Shown here piece after piece: positions 1 to 57,466 of a DNA stretch of 64,000 nucleotides; position 1 is the first letter of the stretch; each line of letters opens with the position of its first letter. The DNA comes from a virus (taxonomy: Duplodnaviria > Caudoviricetes). The translations under genes and the position numbers were made by a program. The stretch is taken from IMG/VR virus record IMGVR_UViG_3300028591_000100, positions 64,001-128,000 of that record; one strand, 5' to 3'. The notes under the pieces are model-generated. The model ran no database searches. It saw only the letters and a program-made list of their open reading frames with translations, and was not told where the DNA came from.

Positions 1-742
1 ATTCCTGAGCTCCTCCAACAATTAGACCAGCACCCTCTAAAGCCTTTAAATTATCTTCTGTGGCTACTAAACATCCTGTACCTGTTGGGCCATAAATCTT
101 ATGTCCAGAAAAAGTCATAAAACTAGCATGAGGGAATTGCTTACCTAGTTCTACATATTCTCCACCATAACTAACATATTGTGTGCAATCTACTAGACTA
201 TATATATGTCGTGCTGCTGTAAGTGTTGTAATTGCATTTACATAATTAAGCACACCTAATTCATTATTAATAGACATAATGCACACTAACAAAGTATCCT
301 TAGTTAAAACACTTAAAATGTCACCACCACGTATTCTACCTGTCATATGAGATGGCTTAACATATGTGACTCTAAAACCAATTTTTTCTAATTGTTTACA
401 TGCATTAATTACTGAATCATGTTCGGTGGCACCACAAATAATGTGTCTTCGTTGTTCTTCAATAGGTTTCCCTGAAGTTAGCTCTTTATAAGCTAACCCT
501 TTAATAACCATATTATTACTTTCGGTTGCACCAGAAGTGAAGATAACATTACCTACTTCTACTCCCATAATATCTGCAATTTTAATTCTAGAATCTTCCA
601 TAGCCATTTCAGCCTTAATGCCAAAAGAATGAATTGACCTAGAATTACCTACAAATTTCTTACTAAGATATGGTTTCATAGCCTTTAATACTTTTTTATC
701 CATCGCAGTATTACTTGCTGCATCTAAAAATACTTCTTTCAT
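1..742 (-). CDS. iscS: Cysteine desulfurase (IscS/NifS family), C-terminus runs off the window
   Basis: Not in the ORF track. Manual translation from ATG at 742 (SD GGAGAG upstream) gives MKEVFLDAASNT...FTSGATESNN...EHDSV...NNELG...SGHKIYGP, the class I desulfurase motifs including the PLP lysine. Confidence 0.9.
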   Translation of the reverse strand, partial: MKEVFLDAASNTAMDKKVLKAMKPYLSKKFVGNSRSIHSFGIKAEMAMEDSRIKIADIMGVEVGNVIFTSGATESNNMVIKGLAYKELTSGKPIEEQRRHIICGATEHDSVINACKQLEKIGFRVTYVKPSHMTGRIRGGDILSVLTKDTLLVCIMSINNELGVLNYVNAITTLTAARHIYSLVDCTQYVSYGGEYVELGKQFPHASFMTFSGHKIYGPTGTGCLVATEDNLKALEGAGLIVGGAQE

Positions 743-750
743 ATTCTCTC

Positions 751-1035
751 CTATCTCATACCTAAGGCAGATTTTACAACACGAGCACTTAAATCGCTAC
801 AACGGTTGCCAATAAATCTCTCAACAACTTTGTAATTAGTATTCTTATCGACTCTTAATGTGATTACATTAGAGCCTGTTTTATGATCAGACACTCTGAA
901 TAATAATGAGTAGTCTCCTGATTTAATTTTAAAATACCAAGAGTTCGTTGAAGATGATTTTCTCTCCTCAAAATCATAACCTTTTTGTTTAATAATTTGT
1001 TTTGCCATATTTCTAATCGCTTCCATGTTTAACAT
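751..1035 (-). CDS. Hypothetical protein
   Basis: ORF track 751..1053. The AGGAGG SD and the promoter at 1060-1087 favour ATG at 1035 (or 1041). Confidence 0.7.
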   Translation of the reverse strand: MLNMEAIRNMAKQIIKQKGYDFEERKSSSTNSWYFKIKSGDYSLLFRVSDHKTGSNVITLRVDKNTNYKVVERFIGNRCSDLSARVVKSALGMR

Positions 1036-1059
1036 AAGCATGTACCTCCTCACACTTAT

Positions 1060-1087
1060 ATTATAGCAGAAAGCATTTTAAAATCAA
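1060..1087 (-). promoter_or_regulatory. Conserved phage promoter TTGATT-N10-TTCTG-N-TATAAT
   Basis: One of seven copies of the same motif with a 16-bp spacer. Confidence 0.8.
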
Positions 1088-1650
1088 CTATTTTCTTCAG
1101 AAAGTCGTTTAAAATATGGAAAATACCATTCTTCACCGAATTTTTCCCTACGACTTTTGACTTTATCTCTAATTTTTTCTTGAAGCTCCTTCAATGAGAT
1201 AGGTTTGTAATCATATAACTCTGTGTTAACATTTATGAAATTTGGTAAATCAACTATAGCTTGATGCAAATGTCCATAAATGTTATATACATAAGGATTA
1301 CAAAAGGCCTCAAAAGCAGGTTCATGACTTAAGATTATACTAGAAGAATAGTATACAGGAGAATCTTTCACATCAATAAAACCCATCTTCTTATATTCTC
1401 CAATAGTTCCTCTATCATGATTACCTGTGATCAAAATCTTTCTGCCATTTAATCGTTTAATTAAATCTGCGCCTTTGGTAACAGGAGACCACAAACAGTC
1501 TCCTAAAATATACACCAAATCGTCTTTTCCTACAACACTATTATATTGTTTAATAATATACTCATTGTGCTCTTCAATACTATTAAATTTTCTACAGGTC
1601 TTTAAAATACCTGCGTGGTTTAAATGCAAATCTGATGTGACCCAAATCAT
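1084..1650 (-). CDS. Calcineurin-like metallophosphoesterase
   Basis: SDLH, LGD, GNHD, SH and GHLH motifs in canonical order. Confidence 0.92.
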   Translation of the reverse strand: MIWVTSDLHLNHAGILKTCRKFNSIEEHNEYIIKQYNSVVGKDDLVYILGDCLWSPVTKGADLIKRLNGRKILITGNHDRGTIGEYKKMGFIDVKDSPVYYSSSIILSHEPAFEAFCNPYVYNIYGHLHQAIVDLPNFINVNTELYDYKPISLKELQEKIRDKVKSRREKFGEEWYFPYFKRLSEENS

Positions 1651-1653
1651 AGG

Positions 1654-4014
1654 CTAGTCCCCATTTTCAAATTGCTTTAGGTAAAGCTGATGTAAATCAC
1701 CACGTAGCCATGTTTGTTTAACTTTAATATTACTTGTTCTACAAGCTGAGTTGATTGCTTTTGGTTGACCCACCAACACGCAATACTTCTTAGCTCTGGT
1801 TAAAGCAGTATATAACCACTCTCTCATTAATAACACATAAGCTGAGGTATCTAAGCATACGATAACAAAATCAGATTGAGAACCTTGTAATTTATGACAA
1901 GTGCAAGCCCAGCCATGAGTTACACTACCCCAGTCAGCTCTAGGTAGAATAACTTGCCCTTGCTCTTCTAGATCTACAATCATCATTTCATCATCAATAT
2001 CTGTAATATGTCCCATATTACCATTAAAGATAGGCACCTGAGTACCCCTTACAGTTCTCGCATGATAATTGTTTTTAATAATCATAACCTTATCATGTTT
2101 CTTATAAGTTACTTCAAACTTAGAACCTGAATCAAACACTTCTACAGTAACGCCACCTTTGGTTTCTGAATTAACCAATTGCTGCACTTCAGCATTAAAA
2201 GTTCTACAGCTATTCATACCGCGTGTTCTAACAGGCACTATGATTTGAATGTCATCAGGGTGTTTTCCCTTATTTAGAAGCTCTTTAAACTCGTTTATAG
2301 CTTGGGTATGAACAATTACAGCCTCACTATTACAAACGACCTTAAAATCGAATAAATCGCCCCTAATATCACTTCCTGAAAAATCATTTTTAACTAAATT
2401 CTTACCTTCACAAACCAATAATGATTGAGTGATAATACCACTCTTCAAAGCTTGACGATGAATTGCTGTTAAAATATTAGTTTTAATATAACCAGAAGCT
2501 ATGCAATCTGCTAATAAATTACCAACATTCATTGGAGGAAGCTGTTTGATGTCTCCGAGCATAATTAACTTTGCGCCTGAAGGAATTGCCTCTATCAATT
2601 TTAAAAATAATTCCTCACCAACCATTGAAGTTTCATCTAAAACTATAACATCATTAGGTAAAGGTTTGTTTTTGCCATAATCAAAACGTTCTTGTTCTGG
2701 TATGTATTTAAGTAGTCTATGAATAGTTTTGCCCTCTAGCTTAGTATAATCTGTCAATAAACTTGCAGCTCTACCTGATAAAGCACATTGTGCTACATTT
2801 AAATTGTAATGCTCAAAGATTCTAATCAACGGTGTAACTGTAGAAGACTTACCTGTACCACTGGAACCCGTTAAAATACTTAAATTATTATCTAATATAT
2901 TCCAGATGGCTTGTTTTTGTTCACGAGTATATTCAAAGCCTTGTGCTTGTTCAACCTCATGAATAATTTTTTCACAAACCTCTTTATTATATTTAAAAGT
3001 AGATTCTGCAGTTTGTATTCTTTCTAACTCACCTAAAATCTTACGCTCAGTTAAACGATAATGTAGCAAACCTACTTTTTTATTTTCATTTGAATAGAAG
3101 AATGAAGGGAACAATAAATCTTTTTTACCATTTTGTATATCAGCATATAGCTTTTCAAAGTCCTTTTGGCCCATCATATCTTCTTTTAAATATACAACTA
3201 AATCACTTTGTTGCACAGGATAACAAACTTCCATAATTTCATTGATTAACTCATCAATTGACATACATGAGTTACCATCATCAGCTTCTTTTTCTAGTCT
3301 ATAACGAGCATAGGCTACGCAACGTTCTCTACACCCACGAGAGAATCCTCTGCTTAACGCAATCTTGTCTGCTTTTTCCCAACCATATCCACGAACAAGT
3401 TTAATCAATGAATAGGGGTTATTTTCAATAATGTCTACCACCATATCAGCAGAACCAAATTGCTTAGCTAGACTATCAATAGCATGTTTTGTTAAGCCTA
3501 AATCTTTTAACGCTACATAAGCTCTACCGTTTGCTATATTATCTGAATATTTCATACAGATACGGTTAGCTGTAACGGGGCCTATTCCCTTAATTTTTGT
3601 TAAAGCATCAATATCATTGTTCTTTAACAAAGGTAGAGGATTGTCGTATAAAGAATAAAGTGATTCAATTTGGTTTTCAGTCAAGAAATAACTGAAAAAT
3701 TTAATTTGATCTTCCTTTTTGTCTAAATCATAGTTCATTTGAATGCTTTCGCAGTTATATTGTATACCCCATTTTGGGTCAACAACTTGTTTTGCTTGTA
3801 ATACATAATCAATACCTTTATCTAGCTTTGGCATTGTCCCTTTAACTATAATGGACTTTTCACCATAACCAGTATAGGCTTTTTCTGGTATTTCACCATC
3901 TCTGATTTCTTTTACATTTAAAAGCACAATAGAAGACTCCCCAGGTTGAGGATTTCTACCTTTAGGGAATCTATAATTATTTAATTGAACTACAGCTGTA
4001 ATAATTTCTTTCAA
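1654..4014 (-). CDS. recD2: RecD2-like SF1B DNA helicase
   Basis: HhH motif (IKGIGPVTA), Walker A GSSGTGKS, DETSMV, GDIKQL, HRQ, TCHKLQGSQ, LYTALTRAK. Confidence 0.93.
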   Translation of the reverse strand: MKEIITAVVQLNNYRFPKGRNPQPGESSIVLLNVKEIRDGEIPEKAYTGYGEKSIIVKGTMPKLDKGIDYVLQAKQVVDPKWGIQYNCESIQMNYDLDKKEDQIKFFSYFLTENQIESLYSLYDNPLPLLKNNDIDALTKIKGIGPVTANRICMKYSDNIANGRAYVALKDLGLTKHAIDSLAKQFGSADMVVDIIENNPYSLIKLVRGYGWEKADKIALSRGFSRGCRERCVAYARYRLEKEADDGNSCMSIDELINEIMEVCYPVQQSDLVVYLKEDMMGQKDFEKLYADIQNGKKDLLFPSFFYSNENKKVGLLHYRLTERKILGELERIQTAESTFKYNKEVCEKIIHEVEQAQGFEYTREQKQAIWNILDNNLSILTGSSGTGKSSTVTPLIRIFEHYNLNVAQCALSGRAASLLTDYTKLEGKTIHRLLKYIPEQERFDYGKNKPLPNDVIVLDETSMVGEELFLKLIEAIPSGAKLIMLGDIKQLPPMNVGNLLADCIASGYIKTNILTAIHRQALKSGIITQSLLVCEGKNLVKNDFSGSDIRGDLFDFKVVCNSEAVIVHTQAINEFKELLNKGKHPDDIQIIVPVRTRGMNSCRTFNAEVQQLVNSETKGGVTVEVFDSGSKFEVTYKKHDKVMIIKNNYHARTVRGTQVPIFNGNMGHITDIDDEMMIVDLEEQGQVILPRADWGSVTHGWACTCHKLQGSQSDFVIVCLDTSAYVLLMREWLYTALTRAKKYCVLVGQPKAINSACRTSNIKVKQTWLRGDLHQLYLKQFENGD

Positions 4015-39632: not shown

Positions 39633-42600
39633 TTATCTAGAGTTTTTAGTAAGTGCGACTTTTGACCTAATAGCTGTCACAAGCTTTTCAAGATCAAATC
39701 CAGAGTCAGCATCAATGTTCATAACTAGATTAGCTATGTTCATAGACTCATCTGTTCCCATGTTACCAAAAATAGATTGACCGATTTGGCCAGAAGAAAC
39801 TCTATCACCTAAGAATCTTAATAACATTGGTGTAACTTCACCAAGCTCCCATAAGTTCTTTGTGATATCAGCTGGAACAATACCAGTTCTAGAAGGCAAC
39901 GCTGTTAAGGTTCCTTGTGGTGTTACAATAGCTTCGGTACCCATCTCATTAATTAAGTTTAATGCTGAAGCGCTTAAACCATATGAACCATGAGCATGCT
40001 TACCTTTAATTTTTGCCCACTCACTTTCAGGCATGCCAGAAGGTTTGCCATCACTATAACTTGCTGGTGCTGTAAGGTGTTCTGCAGCGAACTCACTTTC
40101 ACTTAATACACCCTTATATAAATGTAAACCATTAACATCGTTTGAGTCCCCAGCATCATTAGTAATCTTCCATGCTGCTGAGCCGTCATAGTAAATAGCC
40201 TCGCCACCACCTTCAGGATCTGCTACAATAAAACTAGAAGACCCCAAAATAGATGAGACTCTTACTAAATAGTCGCCGAATGTTTCCTTACCCTCACGTT
40301 TAAGCTGTGAAGTGTCCCCTGTTTTATACCATTTACCATCACTGGTGTAAATCCATGCAGAACCATCTGCTACATCATTTAATAAACTATCTTTAATAGT
40401 ACCTTCTGCTAAGTCTCCGTTGGTGTAGCCTTTAAAATATCCTTCCCCTTCATGGTTTGCGATAGCAAAATGCTGATTGTAATACATTTCTTGATTACTA
40501 TAGCTTCCTTTACCAACACTGTAAGCACCCCGTCCTTGTAAAATACCTCTAGCGTTTGACTTACCATAAGTTTTAAAAGAAGCAAAATCTTCTTCTGTAG
40601 CTCCAGCCGCAATCGCGTCATTAAATGCTGAATGATAAGCTTTTAAAGCAGTATTATATTCACCTGTACCAGGATTTGCGCTCAAAACTTTTTGCCATGC
40701 TTGATCGGCAACCTTAAGCTTATTTGCTTTTTCGGTTTCTTTTGACGCTTTTTCTTTATCTAGGTAGGCATCTAATGACTGTTTAATACCATCTATTGCA
40801 CCAGAAATCATAGAAATATTAGAATTTATATCTTTAGTTACATCCCCCTCTTTTTGGGCTGCACCATACAATTTTTCTAACATTTCATAATTCTCTTTTT
40901 CAAAAATACTACTTAATTCTTCTTTTTGTTTTTCTTTAAGGGCAATTTGGTCGTCTAAAACAGCAATTTGTTTTTCTCTATCAACCGCGTCTAATTCTTT
41001 TTGAGCGCTTTCTATTGCAGATTGATCAGCTTCATAAACCCAACCAACACCAGCTCTATAAACACGCTTCTTTTGTTTTGCTGCATCCTCTAACTTTAAA
41101 CGAGCCTCAACAAGTTTGTTTTCATACTCTCGTTGACTATTAATTTCTTTTAATGCAGCCTTTTGCTCATTTAGATTCTTAATTTCTTTATCTAAAGTGG
41201 TGGTTTGATAGCTAATCAACATTTCATAATAACTCTTCATACTAGAGTCCATTAATTGAATACCAGATTTAACAAAAATATCTGACATTAAATTAGCCAC
41301 TTCAGAAGCTTCTTCAGTTAATTCCCACTCACTCTTTTCTTTGTTGTAATGGTATTGAGAAACAACCCAATCTAAGACACCCGCAAAACTACTAGGGCTA
41401 GCCTCTCTTAATTGAGCAGCAGCTTTTTCTGATAAACTATCATAGAATCTATCTACACCGTTTTCATCTAATGTTAAATATTTATTAAAGAAATCTGTGC
41501 TACCTAAAACTTCATCGCCTTGTGCATTTAATGCAGCATTAGATAGTTGTTTCATATTTGAAATAGCTTGTGTGAACAATTCTGAAGTATTGCCCATGTA
41601 TTGAATCAACGAAGGATATTGAGATATAATTGTCTCCATCCAAGTAGAAATATCTCCAGCTCCATTTGTAATAGAAGACATTAAATCAGCAAAACCACTA
41701 ATCTTAGTATGAATATCTGTTGTTGAACCTAATAAGTCTGACACGGTTAACATACCAAATTGGTCAGTGACATTCTCTAGCTCATCAACAGTTACACCTA
41801 AGGCGCTAGAGAAATTTTCTAAGATTCTCCGAACTGTCTTACTGTCTTTATATCTAGCTCTTAAATTCAAAGCTTCCTGTAATGAATAACTACCACCTGT
41901 AAGAACAGCGTTAATTTCATCATCACCTTGTTTTCTTAATTGCTCATAAAGATAGTCATACCCAACGTCAGTTAAGTTACCATCTTTGTCAAAAACATTA
42001 AGTCCACTTAAACCACCACTCGCATCAACGGCATGGCCATAAGTTTTTAAAATTTCATCAATACCTAAAGCTTTTAATTCGGAAATTGACATTTGGTCTA
42101 AATATCTACCTGTGCCCTCTCCGTCGCTATTTTTAAGTTCAGCAAGGGTTAAAGCTTGTTGGAGAGTAACCTCGTTAATTTCATCTCTAATTTGAGACTG
42201 CATAGCAATTTGACGATCAAGAGCATCCAATAATTGTTCGTAATACTCTAAAAGCTTCTTATTCTTTGTATAATTCTCATATGGCTTAAGTATATCGTTG
42301 GTGTAGTAGTCTTTACTATTTCCGTACTCGTCCCGTGCCGTAAACATACCGACATCTTTTAATCGTAATGCTGTTTGATATAAATATGCTTCCCTCTCAT
42401 GCGTTGCGAAGTACTCGTCAATAGCATCTACACTCGTTTCTAACTCGGCAATCTTCTCTTCAGCAGTGGCTTTACGTTCTAATGCGTTCTGAGAACCCCA
42501 GCTACCGACAGAACCTAAGTTATGTTTTTTTCTATTGGAAGATTTGGCATCTTCTGCCCAATTAGCGCCATAAGTACCGCCAGCTATCGCACCACTAATA

Positions 42601-44070
42601 GCACCAATTAAACCACCAACAGCTATTCCAATAGGACCAAAAAGTGCACCTGCAAGCATTCCAGTAAGAGCGCCTCCTGCAGTACCCGCAGAAGTTATGC
42701 CTACCGCACCCCAACCTATACCACTATTAGAGCCATCATAATCATCAATTTTAGAATAAAGCTTACTTAAATCTTCGCTGTCTTGAAATTGTGTGGAAGC
42801 GTATTTATTGGCAATTTCTTGTTTTTGTAGTTCATATTGAGCAGCTTGCACTGTCTTTAAAGCAGAAGTATCATCTTCTATGCCACTCAATAAATCTGAC
42901 AAACTCTTACCTTGAGCGCCAAGTTGCTTTCTTAACTGATTGCGCAAAGCTTCATTTTCACTGTCAAAAATTTCTTGTTTAAAACTTTGTACAAGCTTAT
43001 GTCTCTCAGCACTACTTAATTCTGTCTTTTGGATATTGTCTAAAGAAGACTGCACTGATTTTAGTTTATTTAATCTCTCATTAGCACGCTCTGTTGTTAA
43101 ATTTGCATTGTCTCGCGCTTTATCAATTTCCGTCGCGATTGCCTCTCCCCGCATTGGGCCAACAATACCCCCAATAACTGGAATTAACGAAATCGCCGCT
43201 GATACAGCAGCCCCTTGTTTTTGAGCCTCTTTTGAACTCTCTACTGTTTTACCCTCAGCATTTTTGTGTGTCGTCGCAGCGGTAACAAATTGTGATACAG
43301 ATGTCATTAATGTAGTCAAAGCAATATCAGCAACTGCCAACCCTGCGTTTAATTTTCCAACTTTTGATGCTGTAGCAAAGAATGGAATATTCGTAGCTCC
43401 GTTGGTAGTACCAGCATCGCCTCCTTGTTTTTTCCCAATAGCACCTATTGCCCCACCTAAGCCATTTGCTCTCATGTTAGTCATAAACTTAGCACCTGAA
43501 GACAATAGCCCTTTTCCTTGTACACCCATCATGGTAAAGAAAATATTAGCAATTGCAGGTAAATAAGGATAAATCCGTTGCAATACTTTTAATAAATTTG
43601 TTTCAACTTTAACAATATCAGTTAATAATTTTGAAACTTCAGAACTATTAGCTAACTCTTCTAGCGCAGCAGTTAACTCATTTCTCGCAAAAGCATAAGA
43701 TTCTCGGTAAGATTGATATTTTCTTTCTGCGGTTCCTTTTGATGTTTCAGAAACCTCTAATAAATCTTTATATTTATCATAGTTCTCCATTAATACCAAG
43801 AAGGCTTCATTTTGTCTTACACCCGCAAAAGCGTTAGCCATGGCTCTCTTGGTAACATTATCAAGAGTTCCCCATCTATCAGCAATTTCATCTAGAACAT
43901 CATCAAAATCTTTAAATTCAAGATTTGTCTTTCTAATTGAAATGCCCATTTTATTCAGTACTCTTTCAACGTCATTTAATTTTTCTGAAGTATCACTTGA
44001 CTCAGAATCAACATTCAACTTATTGTAGGCACCAGCCTTAACATTGCCATAACGAGACATTATAGTTTTT
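39633..44070 (-). CDS. Tape measure fusion protein, exon 2
   Basis: Continues the TP901-type core (KTIMSR...AGVRQ.EAFLVLMENY), Gly/Ala-rich hydrophobic segments, and the C-terminal HAHGS..INEMGTEAIV motif. Joins exon 1 in frame. Confidence 0.9.
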
Positions 44071-44214
44071 CACTTTGTTACTCTTTTAATCATGAAGATT
44101 AAAAGGACTGAGGTGCTTCCAAGAGTGTCTTTACACTCGACCTCAGTTCACGGGCTTCTTTTGTTATACCCGTGGTCAGACTATCGCACCCCCTTCGAAA
44201 AGGGGTTTATTCAT

Positions 44215-45252
44215 TTAGTCGTTCAAGGCTTTGTTGTTTGAAAGTAATTTATCATAATCATTTTTTCTGTCCATATAACCAACCAACTTATTCTGTGACA
44301 GCGTAATTTGATTATTTTCTATAACGTAATTAAAAGAATTATAGTCTTCTAATTTTCCATTATTATCCAAGTATAATTCAATTAATTGTTTACATAATTC
44401 AAGATTTTTATTAATATCTTCTTCCCATAAATAAAGTATATTAATACCAAATTTATGAAAAATATATGTTTTCTTTCTTTTATCTTGGATAATATCTCTT
44501 TTTTGTATTTCATTGATTAATGTGTTTTTTCGAATATCTGCATGCCAATAGGTTCCCATTACTTCTATCATTAGGCCACTGTCAACACAATAATTATCTA
44601 CTGTAAAAAACAAACCACAGTCATATTCATTTTGATATTTGATTCCCATATCTTCAAGTAGTTTATTTATTTTTTGTTGAGGTAAACTATTGGTTCTCTG
44701 TGCCCATGTTTTTTGTAAGCGAGCGGCCTGTATCATTCCCGCATGCTTACACTGTCGACTACAGAATTTAGAAGTGTCTATTAAATGAGGGGACACCTCA
44801 TATTCTTTTCCACAATATTGGCACTTTAATGTCCTTTGTTCTTTTGAAAAATCATGATTGTAACTAGGATGATTTTCTCCTACCCTAGGATTAGCTCTTT
44901 GCCAATCATTTTGGCATTTAATTGAGCAAAATCTTTTAGGATCAGAATGAATAGTGATAAAAGTCTTATTACAAAATTCACATATTCTTTTATCTTGACT
45001 TTGTTTGGAACTATATTCTCCAACACATTTATTACAACAAAAAACTCTATTACTACGCGCTCTAAATTTTCTAGTAAACTCTTTTCCACAATTAGCGCAT
45101 ACATATTTATAAGAGTATTTTGTATTATTATATTTATTTTTGCATTGTGGGGAACAAAATTTTATTAAGTCTGGTCTCCCAGTTGTTGGTATAAACTCTT
45201 GTCCACACCCCACACATTTTTTAGGTTTCCCTAAAAGTTCTTTTACTATCAT
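44215..45252 (-). CDS. Intron-encoded homing endonuclease (Vsr/DUF559, EDxHD-like) with four Zn-finger repeats
   Basis: Four CxxC...FC(S/C)xxC repeats; C-terminal VDNY..IEVMGTYWH..DKRK..LYLWE. The stop codon overlaps intron P7 (GACTAA). Confidence 0.88.
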   Translation of the reverse strand: MIVKELLGKPKKCVGCGQEFIPTTGRPDLIKFCSPQCKNKYNNTKYSYKYVCANCGKEFTRKFRARSNRVFCCNKCVGEYSSKQSQDKRICEFCNKTFITIHSDPKRFCSIKCQNDWQRANPRVGENHPSYNHDFSKEQRTLKCQYCGKEYEVSPHLIDTSKFCSRQCKHAGMIQAARLQKTWAQRTNSLPQQKINKLLEDMGIKYQNEYDCGLFFTVDNYCVDSGLMIEVMGTYWHADIRKNTLINEIQKRDIIQDKRKKTYIFHKFGINILYLWEEDINKNLELCKQLIELYLDNNGKLEDYNSFNYVIENNQITLSQNKLVGYMDRKNDYDKLLSNNKALND

Positions 45253-45296
45253 ACAACAAATTCCTCCTTGTTGCCCACTTCTGGGTTTTCAAGCAT

Positions 45297-45325
45297 AATA
45301 TACAACATTGTATACACAATGTCAA
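45297..45325 (-). promoter_or_regulatory. Intron-internal sigmaA-type promoter for the homing endonuclease
   Basis: TTGACA-17 nt-TATATT about 45 nt upstream of the HEG ATG, followed by the SD AAGGAGG. Confidence 0.6.
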
Positions 45326-45393
45326 TATTAATCATTAGAATAAATTTTGCCAAAGGGGTTATGTATTATCCCCTTAAATCCCCATAAAAGTTT

Positions 45394-48300
45394 AGGGATT
45401 GTCCTACTGTAATACCTGACATTTGATTTACGTCAGCAATTGTTGCAACATAAGCAGCCGCTTGATCAATACTAACGCCACCTAAACGAGCAATATTAGC
45501 AAATTGTGATAAACCTTGAGCAATATCACCAGCTGTAGTTGCAGCCTTAACATCTAGAGCTGTAAATTTATCAACAATGTCCATCGCATCAGATGCTTCA
45601 AGTTTAAAGCCATGCATAGCAGAAGTTAGGTTTTGAGTTGCAGTTGCAGTATCAATCATACCTAATTTACTTAAATACATTGAAGATTTAATTAAATCAT
45701 TAACTTGCGCGATATCATAACCTTGTCTTAACCATGCTGTAGCACTTTGTGTGACTTCAATAGTTGTAGCACCTAATTGTTTGCCTAGTTCAGCATATTG
45801 TCCAATTAAGGTTCTAGCATTCTCTGCATTTTTACCTGTAACAATACGTAAATTAGTCATAGCTTGGTCAAGTTGCTTAGCCTTTTCTGTTATATCCTTT
45901 AAACCTTTGCGGATTGTTCTAATAACAGAGTAAATTAAACCACCGTTCATCAAACGGCTAAACCAACGACTTGTAGCAGCGTCAATTCCTAGGAATCCAC
46001 CACCACCGCCACCATTTCCACTATTTGACTGAGTTGGTTTATTTTCCTTTTGTTTATGATAAAGCTCTGCAAGTCTTTCCATCTTCTTTCTGGATTCAGC
46101 ATTGCTTCCAGCCATATGGTCCAAATCATTTTTTGCTCTATCTAGCTCTAACTCTCTTATTTCTCTTAATAACTCAAGTTCAGTGGTTAACTGTTCGATA
46201 CGTTCTGATTCATTAGAAGAGGTAGCTTTATCAAGCTCTTCTTCTTTTTGTGCTATTTGATCATCAAATGAATACCTCTGTTCTTCATATTTTAAAACAG
46301 CCTGTTCATATTGAGCTACTTTTCGACGGTCTGAAATCGCAGCTTCCTGTTTAGCTTGTTTACGATTTCTTCTATTGATTTTATCAAGATTATCTAAAAC
46401 CCCGTATGTATTATCTGCTTTTTCGTTTGTAAAAGGATTAATAATATTACCATCTTCATCTTGAAGAAAAGCTTTTTCTTTCTTGATTGTTTCAGCATAT
46501 ACTTCTAGTGTTTCACGTTCGCGTTCCCGATCAATTTTTGCCTGTTGTCTAATAGCCGACTTCTCTTTACCTTTTAATAAAGGACTTTTTGCTGCAATAT
46601 CAGCTGCTGCGGCTTTTTTAGATTGCTCCTTATATTGTTGAATATGTTTAACTAAATTTTCAAAAACCTGCTCTTTTCCTGCTTGTTCATTGAAAGCCTT
46701 TAGTTGTTGGTTGGAAGCTGTTATGTATTCATTCATTTGGTCTAGCAGACCCTCGCCCACTGATTTACCCTCAGCGTTAGTCAACATAGAACCTTGTTCT
46801 GAATACATTGTTTTAGCGCCTAGTTTCGCAACCTCCTCATCATAAACTTTCTTAGCCTCATTAAAAGCTGTTTCTTTTTCAGCAATTTCAGCCCTAAGTT
46901 TATCTAATGCAACTTGTTTTTGTGGTGAATCAATTTCACCAGCTAGAGATGCTTCTTTAAGCTTTAAGACATTTAATGCTTTTTGAACTTCAATAATAGC
47001 ATCATAACGCTGTTTAAACTCATCAAGTTCTTTCTTATAAATCGTTTGAGCACCCTCGAAAGTACCACCATAAAACGTACCAGTGTGCTTAACAGAGCTA
47101 TTAAAAGCAATATTAGCTTGCTCTCCATTAAAATCTATAAAATTATCAATAGGTTTGTCAGATTGTAGATAAAGGTCAAAAATATCTTGTAATTTTTGAT
47201 CCATTAAATTAACTTCATAGGTATTTATAAAACCATTGTCTCCTGAAGCAATAATATGCCCCACTACATTGGACCACCCAGCTTGAGCGACCTTCATTTT
47301 TTTCTCAAAATCGGCTACACGAGCAGCTAAAGCTTTTTCAAATGCTTCACCTTCATTGACCCCCGCATCTTGTTCTGCCCCATGTTGAATAGAGTCCCAC
47401 CAATTACGAGTATATTCATTATCTATAGCAAAAAAGTCGTAAGCATTTGTAACTGTTTTTCCCTCTTTTTGAAAAGCCTCTAATTGAGAACGAAGCAACT
47501 GCATTGACCTTGCATAGTCTTTAACCTGTATAGCATAAGGCAATGAAGCTTGACCACTTTCTGGGTTTTTAAGATCTGAAATATGTAAGGTTGTACGACC
47601 ATCTTTATCTTCTTCTACCCACATAGCATCGGCAATTTGATGTGATAAAGCATATCCGCCGTTACTACCCACATGAGAATATCCAACTAAAGGTTGTTCG
47701 GCACCTAGGAATTTACCATTTGGCCCCATTACATACTCTTGAACTCTAGTGTTTGCCAAACCTTTATGAGCAGCTTTTTTCAAAAAAGCTTCTAATTCTT
47801 CATCGTTGTTAAACTTATCAGGCTTAGCAAATCTTAATTGCTCTTTATAATTATCAAGAAGTTCAGGTTCGTATTTTAAAAGAAAATTATACGCCTCATC
47901 TCCATGTACCCATGCTTGGTAATTTTCTTTTTTACCCAAGTCTGAGGTAAGAAGCTCCGCCACTTTATGGGATACTAAACCTCTGATTTTATCTTCTACT
48001 CCTTCTTTATTTCTAAAAGAAGGGGCGTATCTGTTTAACTCTTGTAAAATTGCTTGTTTTTCTGATTCTTCTGTAGCTGCAAAATACTCAGTAGTCAACC
48101 TTTCAATTACATTATCTGTTTGTGGATGTTTGTTTGTTGAACCAATAATACGAGATATTTCTGAGGAAGGACTTGTATGATATAAAACATGACCCTTGTT
48201 AATTTGTTCAATTTCAGGAATATAACGAGTAGAGGCCTGCTTCTTTTGTTCTTTTAATACCTCACCAAAACGAGCCATTACATCTGTAGTATAGCCGCCA

Positions 48301-51300
48301 TTGTTATAAACCTTACCTAAATAAGGAATTAAATTATCCTTACTAGACATATAACCAGGAATACGTTGCCACTGTTGTGTCATCTTAGTTCCTAAATTAA
48401 CACCATCATGCTTTTTCACCATATTTCGGAAAGAGCCTTCATAATTACCCATTATAATGGCGTTAAGCATTTCAAAACTTATTTGATTATAATATTCTTG
48501 ATTACCTGCTTGGACAGCATTAATTTGAGCAATATCGTTTTCAATTCGTTTAACTTCGTCAGACTCCTCGCCATATTGCTTTATTAATTTTTCTTTAGCA
48601 TTTACTGCTACTTTATGTAGTTCCTCAAGTAGCTTTTTATCTTTCTTGGTAACTTCACCCAATGCTTCCAAAGCTGCCCCTTCGAACATCTTATCTTTAT
48701 CGAATACACCAAGTTCCACCCCTTGTTGTAGGAAAGCACGGAAGATTCGTTCATCATTCCATGTCCCCGCAGAGGTAGACATACCCATGGTACTCAACAT
48801 TTGACTAAAAATTCTGTCTGCTTCTTCATCTAAAGGAAGAAGTTCTCCGTTTTCTCCTCTTTTTAAGTTTTTAATGTTAATACCTTTTTGATATAGAGTT
48901 TGGAAAATTGCTCCAAAAGCACGACCGCCTAAAGCTCCTATGTCTTTACGCTGTCTACCTTCTGTGCCTAAGACTTCTCCAATAATATCCTCTGCAATAA
49001 ATTTAGCATTTCCGTAACGTCCTGCACCTTCTTTACCAAGCCAAGACGCTGCTACAGTAATCCGTTTTTCTTCTTTGTCTGTAACACTATTAGCTTTAGT
49101 AATGTCTGCTGCGGTAGTAATATTATCTAGTGCGCCTTCTTTCCCTTTTAGTTCGGGATGTTCTTCTAAAATATGTGCCTTAATGTCGTTTAAGGTTTTT
49201 TCATCTTTTTTAGCTTCATCTTCTTGAATCTTTTTTTGATACTCTTGTTGATGTGTGAAATATGAATTTAATGCCTCTCCTGCTGTCTGAAAATCTCCAG
49301 CGTTAAGGGCGCTAAATAGGGTAATCAAGTCACCGTCCATATCACCTTTTCCAATAGCGGCGTAATGTTTGTTGATAAGTAAACGACCACGGGCAACTAA
49401 TTTTCCATTACTAGATGCTACTACACCGCCACCAAGTAAGTCGTTGATAAAATTAATTGTAGGGTTTCTATTAGACCAAAGGTTGTTAAGAATAGTTCCG
49501 TCCCAAGCTCGCTTGCCGTCTTTTGTTCGTCTAGAAATATCAACCTTGTTTACTATAGATTTAACAATCTGACTATTTGTTTTTTTCCCTGCCCCACGAT
49601 TAAAAAGAGCACTATAAAGACCTAAAACACTATCTCTATTCTCTTTTAATTCTTGGAACAATAGATCGCTTAAATCTTCTGTTGACATAATTCTTGAAAC
49701 ATTACCTAAATTAGCATCCTTTTTACCAAGAATCTCCTCTAATACTTCTTGAGAATCTTCGGTCATACCTTGTAATAAAAGATAACCAGAACCCTGTCCA
49801 CTTTCAATGGTATGATATTTATCGAAAGTTTTACCAGTAGCTATCTCTTTACCATAGCTACTAAGTTCTTCAATAAGATTTCTAATGAAAAATTCTTCAG
49901 CTTTATCCCCACCAAAAGCTGCACCGTTTTCAGGATGAAAATAGTCATTAGCGCTACGTAATATTCTAGTTGCATACTTTAATCCTTCATCTGGTCGATA
50001 TGTATTTTTATCTCCTTGATCATATTCTCCCAGTGGCAAAGTAATCATTCTAGTATTATATAGCTGTCCGTTAACCATGGCAGCCACAGTCTTGTCACCT
50101 AAATCTAATCCAAAAGTTTTTAAATCTTCTACTTTTGTAATAGCATTAAGTTGCCGTTGTTGTTCTTTGGTAAGTTTAGACCATGCCTCTTTATCTTCTT
50201 TAAGTTCCTGAATTTGTTTAAAACGTGCCTCACGTTTTCTTTGCAAATAAGGTCCTACTAAATTAGACGCTCTAACGTCGCCATTATCAACTAATATTCC
50301 ACCTTGTTCATCATAATCAAGGTTATAATCCATTTCTAATAAATCATCTAATGTTAACTTAACAACAGACGCATCTGCACGCATGCTTTCTTGGAAACGT
50401 TCTGCATCTTTTGAAAAAGTTTTTTCAATATACTGTGCATTCTTAACGTACTTATCATATTCTTTTTTTCTGTCTGCCATTTGGTCACGCACGCCGTTTA
50501 CATAATCTCGGATAGGTTTTATGGCCATATCATAATCTTTTTTCGGATCTGCGTTACCACTTGTATAACCATTTTCTAATAAATATCGACTAACATCGCC
50601 TAAGGTTGCTTCTAAAGACCTTAACTCATTAACCCCGATTTTTGCGACAGATTTACTACCTTGACCTAAGTTCATCCACTCAGGAGAAGAGCTTAAACCC
50701 AATTCTTCTGCAAAAATCATTGGATTTTCAGTAGTAATATAGGTTTTTCCCCCTACCTCATGTTTACCAAAATAGGTTTTCTTAGGATCGTAAATATTGG
50801 CTGCTTGACCTACTCTTACTGCTGCGAAAAGCATGTTAGTAGCGAACTCTTTATCCGCCTCTTTTTTTTCTGCTAAACGTTCTTCCAATGCTTTATTATC
50901 AGTAAGAAACATACCCGTTTCAGGGTCAATCGAAAAGATACTGTCTTCCTTTCCAAAAAACTGTTTAAAAAATTCATCATTTTTATAGTAGTTGGCAATA
51001 TCTTTACCACTTTTTTTCTGCACGTCTCTTAACTGAGAGTTTACGTGCGTAAGAATTTGCATAATACGAGATCTAATATTTTTGTTTGTTATAGGAGCAT
51101 TTTCAATAAAATTTTGAGCTCTTAAACCCCCGCCATTTTGCAATTTTTGTTTAGCGTCTCTAAAAATTTCTTCTTCACTATAACCTTCTTCTAGCATGGC
51201 TGCGGCCATTAAAAGGTTAGTAGATACAGATTTAGTTGTACGCTCATCCGCTGTTAAGCCAGCACGAAAGACTGATGTACTATTATGTCTTTGTCTGGTT

Positions 51301-53060
51301 GCCACTAGGTTTGAAAGATTCTCACCAGATTTTCCAGTATAATCATAATCAATTGAATAAGTATTGTCTAATTCATAAACTTTTCGAATATATCGTTGAA
51401 ATTTATCAAAAACTTTTTCTTGTTTATAAACATATTTTCCAGAAGCCTCTTTTTCTAAAACATTTAAAGTTTCTTGCGAAAATTTTTCGATATCTTGATT
51501 TAATTTTTCAATTTTTTTAATATCCGCTTCTTTTGTGCTGTTTTTTATTTTTTCTAATTGTCTCTTTTTGGACTCTAGAATTGCCTCTCTTACATAGGTA
51601 TTAACTTCATCAAACTTAATAGTCCTTCCTGTTAAATGTTTAGGGTCTTTTATATCTCTAATATCATGGGCTAGCTCTGGTCCCATAAAAGAAGCATCAG
51701 CTCCAAAGCCTTTAAGAGACATTTCTAAAGATTTATGGTACTGTTTTTTAAAAGCTTTTACATCTAAACCAAATTTTTGTTTGATTTCTTCTGCCCCTGA
51801 TGCAGTATCTGCAATCTTATATAAACGTTTAAGAGTTTCTCTACCTTTATTAAGACTTTTTTTACTTAAGGTCGCTGTCGTATAGATATCTTTATACAAA
51901 TCTGTATCTGAATAAATCCCTTCTGAAATACCTTGCTGTAACATTCTAAGTTGTTCTTTAGACATTACAGAGGTCATACCTGTTGCAGCTCTTGGTTTAC
52001 CTTTTAGATAGGTATTTTTTTGACGTAAAACTTGCGCGTTTTGTTTTAATTTTTTACCTTGAGCCCGCAAAGGAGCTAGTGCTGCCTCAACATCTGTAAC
52101 ACCAAATTTTCCAACAGTACCTTCTGTCATACCTGCCTGAGACATTTTCCCAGCAAATGAACTGAAGACATTCTCAAAATCACCTTTCCAGATGTTTCTA
52201 TAAATCCATCCATAATGACTCTTTACATAATTACTGATTTGTTGCGGTGTTTTAAAACCACGCGCAGCGTTCATAATTTTTTCAACATCTCTAGTAAACT
52301 GTTCAACAGTAGGAGCTCCTGCTTTCCCTTTATTGGCATTATATAATTGTCTTTGATATTGGGCTGTTAAAATATGACCCATCATAGCCCACAAAGCTTC
52401 AGGTCTCAAATTATTTATAGACTTATCATTTAATTCTTCATATTCATTAATTTGATGAGTGCTATATACACCCGTAGTTAGTTGCTTTACAGAAGCCATT
52501 GAGTTATTAACTTTTCTTTTTAAATACCTTAACCCCTCTTTGGTATTTTGCTGTATTTTTTGTCGAATAAGACGATCATTTTCTTTCCAATCCTCTAGCA
52601 CTTGAGCAACGCCTGTACTTAATGCACTCGCTAAGCCAACCTCTCCGTTCATACCTCTAACTAAAAGAGGACTATTAGGATTTAACATACCGTCTTTTAA
52701 AGTATAATTTCCATCTCTTCCTGTTCGAGATATTTCAAGAAACGGACAATCATCATCTGATATATCTCGAGCTTCTTGACCTCTTGGTCTGAACACTATT
52801 TTAGTTCCCCGACCATTAGGTAGTCGTCTAAACTCAGGGTAAAGACCATAATTAGCAGCCGCCCAAGAAGAAACCCGACGTAGCTCTTGCTCTAAATTAT
52901 GAATAGCTTTTCCTCGTTCAACCTCTTTATCAAATCCAAGCTTTTTCATCATGTTTAAGTTGTCGTGTGCTAAGGCGTTTTGACCCAAAGCATCCTTTAA
53001 CCAACTATCTAAATCATAGAAAACATCAACTTGTTTATTATTATTTTGATTATTTGCCAT
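45394..53060 (-). CDS. Tape measure fusion protein, exon 1: two-barrel RNAP-like domain, PD-(D/E)XK nuclease domain and start of the tape measure core (spliced product ~4034 aa)
   Basis: NRNPT (aa 1197) and GDMDGD (Asp 1240/1242/1244); nuclease motifs RGLVSH..E, AEQPL, ADAM, SDLK, QVKDY; tape measure core LDQAMTNLRIVTG...GATTIEV...WLRQG. Confidence 0.85.
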
Positions 53061-54102: not shown

Positions 54103-54177
54103 TAGTCGCAGGAGATGGATTCGAACCACCGATATCAAGGAGGTGACCCTTGTGAGTTACCACTACTCTACCCTGCC
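54103..54177 (-). tRNA. Atypical tRNA: initiator-like body with CAC anticodon (possibly a pseudo-tRNA)
   Basis: Full cloverleaf GGCAGGG-TA-GAGT..ACTC-A-CAAGG GT CAC CT CCTTG-..-GGTGG TTCGAAT CCATC-TCCTGCG-A; ends in CTA rather than CCA. Confidence 0.75.
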
Positions 54178-54402: not shown

Positions 54403-55051
54403 AAAAACTTAATACCTTAATTTTATGTATCTGCCAGGTTTTTATTCGCCTTACTTTCTATATAAGTTCTTATTCGCACATAGTGACGATAAGTCTGAGC
54501 GATAGGGAGCTACCCTAAGGCTTCTTACCGTGGTCTAGCACTAACGGGACTAGTACCCGCACCTTTCACCAAGCTTCAGAATATTTGTTCTTTTACTTTC
54601 TTCTCATGTATTATAAAAAGAATATAGCTACTGCAAATAATAGAGATTTAGCTACTAGGACCTTCTACTCGTCTTATACACATCTTTCAATGCTTCAACT
54701 CTACCGAGTGCCTTGCACAGCACTCTACGGCTTATTGGTAATTTCCAAGGTCTGACCGCGGCACCACCCGCTCGGCGCCCTAACTTGGATTGTTCTCCAC
54801 AGGAGCGTCTATTACGCCGTCGACAAGAAAGGTTGCTTAAGAATAATTATATAAATCACACAACACTCCAGCGGAATGGGATTTCCCCTTGTGGACTTCA
54901 AAGTCGCCAATGAAGCCTCGACAGCAGTTGCCCAAGTATCCTTAGGTACTTACCGCTCCACATATAGCCTTCTTGGGAGTGTTTCTCAGCAGGAACGCAA
55001 TTCCTCATGCACTGAGTTGACATATACATAAAATTAAGATATTAAGTTTTT
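54403..55051 (-). ncRNA. Large structured RNA, ROOL-like (ROOL/GOLLD class)
   Basis: Own promoter; 28-bp terminal stem (55024-55051 with 54403-54430, one G.U); many hairpins; ~650 nt near phage tRNAs. Motifs such as CUUGGGCAAC and GGGUAGCUCCC..GCUCAGAC resemble ROOL from memory and were not verified by search. Confidence 0.72.
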
Positions 55052-56413: not shown

Positions 56414-56489
56414 TGGTGCTAAAGATAGGATTCGAACCTATGACCTCTTCCTTACCATGGAATTGCTCTACCAACTGAGCTACTTCAGC
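56414..56489 (-). tRNA. tRNA-Thr(GGT)
   Basis: Cloverleaf, anticodon loop AT GGT AA, encoded CCA. Confidence 0.93.
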
Positions 56490-56493
56490 AAAA

Positions 56494-56567
56494 TGGAGCA
56501 CGTGACGAGAATCGAACTCGCGTATGCACCTTGGGAAGGTGCCGTTCTACCATTAAACTACACATGC
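56494..56567 (-). tRNA. tRNA-Gly(CCC)
   Basis: GCACC TT CCC AA GGTGC anticodon arm, U73 discriminator, encoded CCA. Confidence 0.93.
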
Positions 56568-56585
56568 AAAAAAACAAATTTCGCA

Positions 56586-56666
56586 TTAACGAAAATCATT
56601 TATATTAGTATTTGTTAAAATAAAAATATCTGCAATTCTCATTAATGCTCTCATAATTTTTTTCAT
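56586..56666 (-). CDS. Possible 26-aa peptide MKKIMRALMRIADIFILTNTNINDFR
   Basis: Strong SD GGGAGGGG that can be sequestered by an upstream anti-SD sequence; below the ORF-track size cutoff. Confidence 0.4.
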   Translation of the reverse strand: MKKIMRALMRIADIFILTNTNINDFR

Positions 56667-56731
56667 TTTCTCCCCTCCCTGTTTTAGTAGGTTTTAACGT
56701 CTTTGTCTTGACGAAGGGAGGGGAAAATAAA

Positions 56732-57361
56732 TTATAATACTTTATTGTCTTTTAACCAAGGAATAGCATCTGATTTTATAATCCATGATAGACCGAAGAA
56801 AAACAAGGCTATAGCCTCAATTATCCAGGTTAAATTATAACAATTAAAGCCTGGAATATATTGTAGTAAGAATAATAGGAATGAACCTATCATACCAATA
56901 CCGCACACCCTATAGATAATATTCTTAATCTTTTTTTGTTGTGTCATTTGTCCATTTGTCTTAGTGAATAAGAAAAAAGACATGAAAGCTAATGTTCCAA
57001 AGAACACTACTGCACTAATGCAGTGGAATATATTGCTAATATCTGACCTTAAATGTAAAATACCTGTTGCGATACTTGGATCAGGTAAATATGTCATGGG
57101 AAATAAACAAATTCCAATACCAAAAATACCCGCGATTGTTGCTGTGATATCGTCGGTTTTATTATACCCCTTATAATTAATTAATAAAATACCTGCGCTG
57201 CCTAGAACAACCATAAAAGTTCCAACAGCAAACAATGAATAATAAGTGATAGAAATTGATTGAGGCCAAGATAATGTGATCAAAGCTACCAACCATGGTA
57301 GTAGCATACCTAAGATTCCTATCATAATTCTCATTCTTTTTGTATTAACTGTAACATTCAT
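56732..57361 (-). CDS. Multi-pass membrane protein (DUF998-like)
   Basis: Five or six hydrophobic helices; SISITYY and H..SA motifs. Confidence 0.65.
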   Translation of the reverse strand: MNVTVNTKRMRIMIGILGMLLPWLVALITLSWPQSISITYYSLFAVGTFMVVLGSAGILLINYKGYNKTDDITATIAGIFGIGICLFPMTYLPDPSIATGILHLRSDISNIFHCISAVVFFGTLAFMSFFLFTKTNGQMTQQKKIKNIIYRVCGIGMIGSFLLFLLQYIPGFNCYNLTWIIEAIALFFFGLSWIIKSDAIPWLKDNKVL

Positions 57362-57391
57362 ATAAACTTACACTCCTTTTACAAAATCATA

Positions 57392-57466
57392 TGGCAGAGG
57401 TGCTAAGACTTGAACTCAAACTAAAGGTTTTGGAGACCTCCGTGCTACCATTGACACTACACCCCT
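57392..57466 (-). tRNA. tRNA-Trp(CCA)
   Basis: AGGGGTG/CACCTCT acceptor stem, CT CCA AA loop, G73, encoded CCA. Confidence 0.93.

Follow-up and report, generated by a model that had tools for sequence, protein, structure and literature searches.

A putative beta-prime-like RNA polymerase module in the front half of a giant phage tape measure protein

The Thermus phage P23-45 carries an active virion RNA polymerase (RNAP) at the N-terminus of gp96, its tape measure protein of 5002 amino acids (aa), with the motif DFDGD at residues 779-783 (Chaban et al. 2024, PMC10770324). This enzyme transcribes the pre-early genes, among them the one for the non-virion RNAP gp64. It is described as flat and clamp-less (crystal fragment 327-1124) and has homologues in P74-26, G20c and TSP4; the tail- or virion-delivered two-barrel enzymes cited in the same study are all single chains (PMC10770324). 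Here we analyse positions 64001-128000 of the IMG/VR virus record IMGVR_UViG_3300028591_000100 (154,703 bp; from an uncultured phage; rated complete by CheckV), a stretch of 64,000 nucleotides (nt) that we call the window. Judging from sequence comparison and structure prediction, the front half of its giant tape measure protein very probably carries a beta-prime-like RNAP module. An earlier note on this DNA had proposed an RNAP fused to the tape measure and had described this delivery architecture as one not known to be characterised. We confirm the fusion, with the tape measure domain PF10145 found in the same open reading frame (ORF) and intact homologues of 3947-4297 aa, while the novelty of the architecture fails because P23-45 gp96 is already characterised as a tape-measure-fused virion RNAP (PMC10770324). 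The locus is a new example, unrelated in sequence, of a known design rather than a new principle.

The ORF in question (45366..53060(-), 2564 aa) contains the four motifs noticed earlier, NRNPTI, DMDGD, GAGRYGN and LYQKGINIK (aa 1389-1397), each where the earlier note had placed it (Table 1). Tape measure families cover its last ~190 residues, with a PF10145 match of 66.8 bits (curated cut-off 33.2, E 3e-18) that ends in the middle of the domain, and no other family is recognised in this ORF by Pfam or PHROGs. The spacing of 42 residues from R1198 to D1240 falls within the published filter for two-barrel RNAPs, which places [RK]xP 20-100 residues upstream of DxDxD (PMC10770324, Supplementary Data 4). 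DxDxD occurs only once in the 2564-aa protein, and the combination of DxDGD with [RK]xP 30-50 residues upstream is expected by chance about 0.003 times per such protein, as estimated from composition.

The family is rare, with 13 matches among 1.84 billion representative proteins using phmmer and 18 by a word-indexed search, and its public names consist only of 'hypothetical protein' from rumen or gut bins. Conservation of DxDGD had been proposed as a check on the polymerase reading, and all 26 homologues, the most distant at 26 % identity, keep D-x-DGD unchanged. Within aa 900-1420 the positions invariant across these 26 sequences form four clusters (G1188, P1200, I1202, D1207 and G1225; D1240, D1242, G1243 and D1244; G1345, G1347 and G1350; L1389, Y1390, Q1391, G1393, I1394 and K1397), and R1198 is conserved in at least 90 % of the homologues. 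The four clusters coincide exactly with the four motifs of the earlier note, which thereby hold the best-conserved positions of the family. An EF-hand was considered for DMDGD and ruled out because Leu stands at the position that should be Gly.

The extension that precedes the tape measure domain has no match in Pfam or PHROGs, among PDB sequences using phmmer and profile search, or in a tblastn search of 50,697 phage records. Pfam likewise finds no PF05183 in the polymerase-like module. Full-length hhalign comparisons with the gp96 family, rpoC, rpoB and the family of a YonO-like RNAP encoded elsewhere in this genome are not significant (YonO-like family: E 0.15 with the motifs out of register). 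Established two-barrel families likewise lack significant similarity beyond the DxDxD region (PMC10770324), and we therefore compared slices around the catalytic barrel alone. The barrel slice aligns with E. coli beta-prime 330-500 (P 0.036), the gp96 family (P 0.034) and the YonO-like family (P 0.031). In each of these alignments, some 100 columns long, the RxP and DxDGD motifs of the two partners coincide. None of the 20 column-shuffled controls reaches the observed scores of 18.7-20.3; their maxima are 13.5-17.7. Because proven RNAP families compared with each other in the same test give P 0.0046-0.037, the barrel sequence resembles known RNAP barrels as much as those resemble one another. 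Slices around the bridge helix yielded nothing with hhalign. The NRxPT(L/I) and SG(R/Y) motifs are of beta-prime type, and a protein-language-model search gave PF05183 as the nearest named cluster (0.81), which we take as a lead only.

Structure prediction points to the same fold. A first AlphaFold model (aa 520-1700, 18 sequences, predicted local distance difference test (pLDDT) 66) had no RNAP in the first ranks of Foldseek and only helical bundles in a wide VIA search. With a second model (aa 900-1420, 26 sequences, pLDDT 71), the wide VIA search was filled by long helices, and Foldseek, which the earlier note had suggested for aa 1-1620, returned RNAP largest subunits for 50 out of 50 first matches among 350,542 PDB chains. 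The top matches are the non-virion RNAPs (nvRNAPs) of AR9 (7s00_d, E 9.5e-3) and phiKZ (8que_A, E 1.6e-2, prob 0.94). VIA alignments to E. coli beta-prime, whose numbering was verified on rpoC, span the clamp region, the barrel and longer segments (Table 1). The barrel alignment has 14-17 % sequence identity. In the VIA alignments S1091-G1092 falls on S350-G351, and D1240 corresponds to beta-prime D460 because K1238 falls on N458; two independent models give collinear alignments with this same correspondence. Furthermore, an ESM Atlas shape search placed aa 1092-1257 on the PF00623 (RNA_pol_Rpb1_2) cluster with a template modelling (TM) score of 0.40 over 98 residues (root-mean-square deviation, rmsd, 3.9 Å).

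One explanation for these motifs other than a polymerase is that they belong to an unrelated metal-binding domain, for example an envelope or DNA hydrolase, and that the RNAP matches are artefacts of low-confidence models. The uniform Foldseek ranking, the collinearity of two independent models, the match to PF00623 for the same residues from a separate library and three in-register profile alignments above shuffles make this highly unlikely. Because independent methods agree on one register, a beta-prime-type double-psi beta-barrel (DPBB) is clearly the best reading of the RxP...DxDGD stretch on sequence and model evidence, and the Mg-binding barrel claimed in the earlier note is supported.

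Past the barrel the picture is less sharp. The helix with GAGRYGN aligns close to where the bridge helix ends, and LYQKGINIK falls near beta-prime 927-929; alignments past the barrel do reach beta-prime 805-807 and 927-929, but with an rmsd of 8-10 Å. The likeness of these two motifs to helices of the single-chain group, as proposed in the earlier note, has some support for GAGRYGN, whose helix aligns with the bridge helix, and is doubtful for LYQKGINIK, which lacks an Asp. The same note had assigned the polymerase to the first ~1600 aa; the beta-prime-like part instead occupies aa ~884-1590, behind another ~880 aa. As for a two-barrel enzyme, a beta-prime-type barrel is supported; the earlier note could not confidently place the two lysines of the second barrel, and we did not locate that barrel.

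Several observations weigh against reading the module as a polymerase. Each single structural score is weak and the DMDGD loop has a pLDDT below 50. LYQKGINIK has no Asp where the (V/I)DxxK trigger-loop motif has one. The second barrel (DPBB-B, with its two basic residues) was not located, and hhalign gave no signal against rpoB. When aa 545-700 were compared with the DPBB-B regions of gp96, rpoB and the YonO-like family, the scores were not above shuffles, a test without power because the positive control, gp96 against rpoB, fails too. There are two leads, both without statistical support. One is the invariant R599-x-G-x-T-x-D605-x-R607, preceded 8-11 positions earlier by a basic residue. In the other, aa 709-808, a Lys precedes a strand ending in Pro, a pattern similar to the KG...P that a published alignment shows for gp96, gp64, beta and PolD. 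A complex prediction of aa 1080-1420 with aa 540-880 scored 0.31 against a mark of 0.32 and counts neither for nor against.

It is conceivable that only a beta-prime-like half resides on the tape measure and that the active site is completed in trans by a beta-like protein of virion or host origin. The split AR9 and phiKZ enzymes do supply the best fold matches, with their beta-prime pieces, and no second barrel is recognised in cis. However, none of the other large ORFs of the window matches a beta-like protein, the ~880 conserved residues preceding the beta-prime-like part leave room for a reduced beta, and the single-chain format of the known delivered enzymes (PMC10770324) argues for completion in cis; we find the in-trans arrangement very unlikely. 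Alternatively, the module may derive from an RNAP and be catalytically inert, with its fold retained for binding or guiding DNA, as a 'pilot' part of the ejected tape measure. Such a role would fit the missing second barrel, the trigger-loop-like motif without the usual Asp and the presence of a complete YonO-like RNAP in the same genome. Against it, the Mg-binding triad, RxP and the bridge-helix motif are among the invariant positions across ~2100 residues of 26 sequences down to 26 % identity, a pattern expected of an active site under selection, and we regard inertness as unlikely.

The 2564-aa ORF is probably only exon 1 of a larger gene, 39633..53060(-). Exon 1 opens with the N-terminal extension, which holds the RNAP-like module; a coiled-coil region and a poly-Gly linker follow, and then the start of the PF10145 domain. 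The ORF 39633..44060(-) carries on the same phrog_4211 profile, which matches both exons (exon 1 E 2e-27; exon 2 E 4e-19). At the junction GQSL and KTIMSRYGNVKAG stand 1323 nt apart in the window, while intact homologues run uninterrupted across it (...GQALKTIMSRYGNVKAG...; GQSL is directly followed by KTIMSRYGNVKAG in the intact homologue P0009), making the insertion boundary precise relative to them. The insertion starts after U45394, which is able to pair as U.G in a P1 helix (UCCCU AAAC...GGGGA, the boundary following UCCCU), and ends with G44071; R-like and S-like elements found by inspection would form P7 (GACUA/UAGUC). Rfam gives no group I match to the insertion, even at E up to 10. 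We conclude from these sequence features that the insertion is probably a group I-like intron and that the tape measure transcript is likely spliced. An intein is ruled out because the insertion contains in-frame stop codons. The gene may also simply be split, for which an ATG 3 codons into exon 2 can be cited.

The predicted spliced product has 4034 aa, which fits the size of the intact homologues, with an N-terminal extension of ~2370 residues and hydrophobic segments at spliced aa 2841-2862 and 3022-3054. The extension and the tape measure domain are separated by six consecutive Gly (NSGNGGGGGGFLG, aa ~2363-2371, window about 45948-45974), which may serve as a flexible linker or mark a site of processing. 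The tape measure genes of the relatives P0002, P0003, P0005, P0007, P0008 and P0018 are also cut inside the PF10145 domain. The cuts use at least three different sites, following GQSL (the site used here), ATQNL and ATGW, and so point to repeated insertions into this conserved stretch.

A second polymerase gene, coding for the YonO-like single-chain RNAP, spans the ends of the contig (genome 152822..154702, continued at 23..1225) with 41 codons repeated. It matches PF05183 (E 1e-8), YonO of SPbeta-like phages (E 1e-36), phage c-st and Enterocloster phages, and has 771 homologues of about 990 aa. As the two ends share these 41 codons but differ over the first ~20 nt, the record must be either circularly permuted or terminally redundant. 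Many homologues have only 553-572 aa, covering 88 % of the 627-aa query piece, versus ~990 aa at full length, and their genes may be split too. A relative placed in a Clostridium sp. CAG:343 bin has both polymerase genes on its 130-kb contig, with identities of 28 % for the tape measure module and 73 % for the YonO-like gene.

Taken together, the observations are best explained by an intron-split tape measure with a compact beta-prime-like RNAP that is packed in the tail, ejected and active early, a reading to which we assign a probability of about 0.7. Intron removal would yield the 4034-aa protein from the gene 39633..53060(-). Its module would comprise a clamp-like part (884-1083), the barrel (1091-1260) with the predicted Mg-binding D1240, D1242 and D1244, GAGRYGN as a bridge-helix-like and LYQxGIxxKN as a trigger-loop-like element, and a beta-like half, second barrel included, may come from the ~880 residues before it. 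If P23-45 gp96 is a guide, the tail lumen would house the protein until its ejection at infection, and the hydrophobic C-terminal part would form a conduit. As the DNA enters, the polymerase part would transcribe its first genes without need of the host RNAP, and the YonO-like RNAP coded at the genome ends would act later. The analysis itself shows the motifs and their conservation, a beta-prime-like fold, the fusion to a tape measure and the second RNAP gene; catalytic activity, the second barrel, virion location and the order of transcription are inferred. As to origin, we would only tentatively advance an independently evolved fusion from the multisubunit lineage, in which a reduced beta-beta-prime chain with clamp was joined to a RecB-like nuclease and a tape measure.

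The candidate nuclease lies between the RNAP-like module and the coiled coil, where a motif set reminiscent of PD-(D/E)xK or RecB-like enzymes is conserved (E1788, D1811, D1829-x-K1831 and Q1845xxxY1849). Pfam does not match this segment; a language model points weakly to Mrr_cat and Tox-REase-7 (0.77). BFVD entry A0A8S5SD80_1, which is the opening piece of a 'minor tail protein' from Siphoviridae sp. ctnpt50, is matched by the aa 520-1700 model (E 9.6e-6, 774 columns, 11 % identity), and because of this match the extension may be common to more distant tape measures.

Upstream of the tape measure and on the same strand lie terminase, portal and structural genes, with nrdD/nrdG, four tRNAs and a ROOL RNA placed between the structural genes and the tape measure. 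Beyond tRNA-Trp, window ~57467-60321 is without any ORF of at least 80 aa. The anaerobic ribonucleotide reductase gene nrdD is found as two ORFs, window 62724-63644 (-) and genome 128419-129753 outside the window, which match phrog_487 positions 414-712 and 3-402. Because these ORFs are ~750 nt apart, they suggest a second intron or insertion. Downstream of the tape measure are ORFs of 1781 and 3756 aa, in which no family is recognised, and genes for Pol III alpha and a RecD2-like helicase. The host is probably an anaerobic gut or rumen member of the Bacillota.

Table 1. Features of the tape measure locus and alignments of its polymerase-like module (window coordinates)
Feature	Residues (aa)	Window position	Strand	Remarks
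Beta-prime-like module (putative)	~884-1590	48291..50411	-	collinear with E. coli beta-prime 23-1340; VIA, Foldseek
Catalytic double-psi barrel (DPBB-A, predicted)	1091-1260	49281..49790	-	S1091-G1092, helix TEDSQEVLEEIL, N1197-R-N-P-T-I, G1239-D-M-D-G-D
NRNPTI (R1198)	1197-1202	49455-49472	-	
GDMDGD	1239-1244	49329-49346	-	
DMDGD, predicted Mg-binding triad	D1240, D1242, D1244	49329..49343	-	invariant in 26 homologues
GAGRYGN, candidate bridge helix	1345-1351	49008..49028	-	in long predicted helix
Trigger-loop-like segment LYQxGIxxKN		48867..48896	-	
Candidate second-barrel basic residues F598-R599-A-G-L-T-A-D605-E-R607	598-607	51240..51269	-	conserved motif; lead only
Alternative second-barrel candidate	709-808	50637..50936	-	strand-strand-helix twice, pLDDT about 70-89; lead only
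VIA, on E. coli beta-prime 350-489	1091-1271			117-118 residues; rmsd 4.5 Å; table value 4.5
VIA, on beta-prime 23-342 (clamp region)	884-1083			138-140 residues; rmsd 4.2-4.8 Å; table value 4.7-5.0
VIA, on beta-prime 25-458	888-1238			214-246 residues; rmsd 14-15 Å; table value 4.4-5.0
VIA, on beta-prime 25-1340	888-1590			241-260 residues; rmsd 7.8-15 Å; table value 4.6-4.8
PD-(D/E)xK / RecB-like motif set, candidate nuclease domain	1786-1849	47514..47705	-	family conservation
Exon 1		45394..53060	-	2555 codons + 2 nt
PF10145 (PhageMin_Tail), first part	2424-2555	45394..45791	-	intron-cut
Intervening sequence, 1323 nt		44071..45393	-	candidate group I intron
HNH homing endonuclease ORF, 345 aa		44215..45252	-	within intron; phrog_1271, E 8e-22
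R-like element AACGACUAAA		44214-44223	-	by inspection
P8 GC hairpin		44190-44205	-	between R- and S-like elements; by inspection
S-like element GAUAGUC		44179-44185	-	by inspection
Exon 2, remainder of tape measure protein		39633..44070	-	phrog_4211 profile positions 788-1719
tRNA-Val		54105-54177		between ROOL RNA and tape measure gene
ROOL RNA, full-length		54417-55040	-	RF03087, 273.7 bits, E 4e-62; ~1.3 kb upstream of tape measure gene
tRNA-Thr, tRNA-Gly, tRNA-Trp		56414-57466	-	

In the literature that we searched, tape-measure-fused virion RNAPs are documented for one Thermus phage lineage only, and we found no such family other than the gp96 type. A second, sequence-unrelated family would show that the strategy is general. 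If this fusion did evolve independently, tail tape measures have acquired virion RNAPs on at least two occasions, and gut and rumen siphoviruses may often carry such fusions. A gut and rumen family paired with a YonO-like enzyme would provide a mesophilic system for studying how a polymerase travels through the tail tube and would let the coupling of transcription to genome entry be asked. For annotators, the locus is a warning that giant 'tape measure' ORFs can hide enzymes missed by Pfam and PHROGs.

The closest described design is gp96 of P23-45. Both proteins are giant tape measures (5002 aa, and 4034 aa here) with a DxDGD RNAP module in the N-terminal part, both genomes code for a second, free-standing RNAP (gp64 in P23-45, the YonO-like enzyme here), and the barrels are locally similar, with FRNPVMG...VVVNQEYAKSTGVDFDGD in gp96 and NRNPTIN...LLINKHYAAIGKGDMDGD here. 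Beyond the barrel there is no significant similarity (full-length hhalign E 0.29), and none of the gp96 relatives P0147-P0150 is among the 13 phmmer matches in the 1.84 billion representatives, all of which have E 1e-33 or lower. The gp96 module starts near the N-terminus, with DFDGD at 779, whereas DMDGD is at 1240 here; gp96 is described as clamp-less, whereas aa 884-1083 here align with the beta-prime clamp region; and gp96 has a metallopeptidase domain (PF01551), which we do not see here. The two systems also differ in the type of partner polymerase, in the intron of the tape measure gene here and in the host, a thermophile for P23-45 and probably anaerobic gut or rumen Bacillota here.

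The best fold matches come from multisubunit beta-prime, including the split RNAPs of AR9 (7s00) and phiKZ (8que), to which the module aligns in collinear order, from a clamp-like part through the SG...RxPT...DxDGD barrel to the candidate bridge helix and the trigger-loop-like segment. In contrast to beta-prime, it has ~700 rather than ~1400 aa, no Pfam RNA_pol_Rpb1 match and no known separate beta subunit, and it lies within a structural tail protein. Compared with the single-chain enzymes YonO, phi14:2 gp66 and QDE-1, it has no PF05183 match, its hhalign signal is at the level of the barrel only, and the true YonO homologue of this genome is a separate gene rather than the tape measure module. 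The single-chain format is nevertheless common to them, only ~40 residues separate the bridge-helix and trigger-loop motifs, a short distance as in that clade, and GKEGAGRYGN resembles the bridge helix GKSGVGITAN of phi14:2 gp66 and GTGVGGFSN of the YonO-like enzyme.

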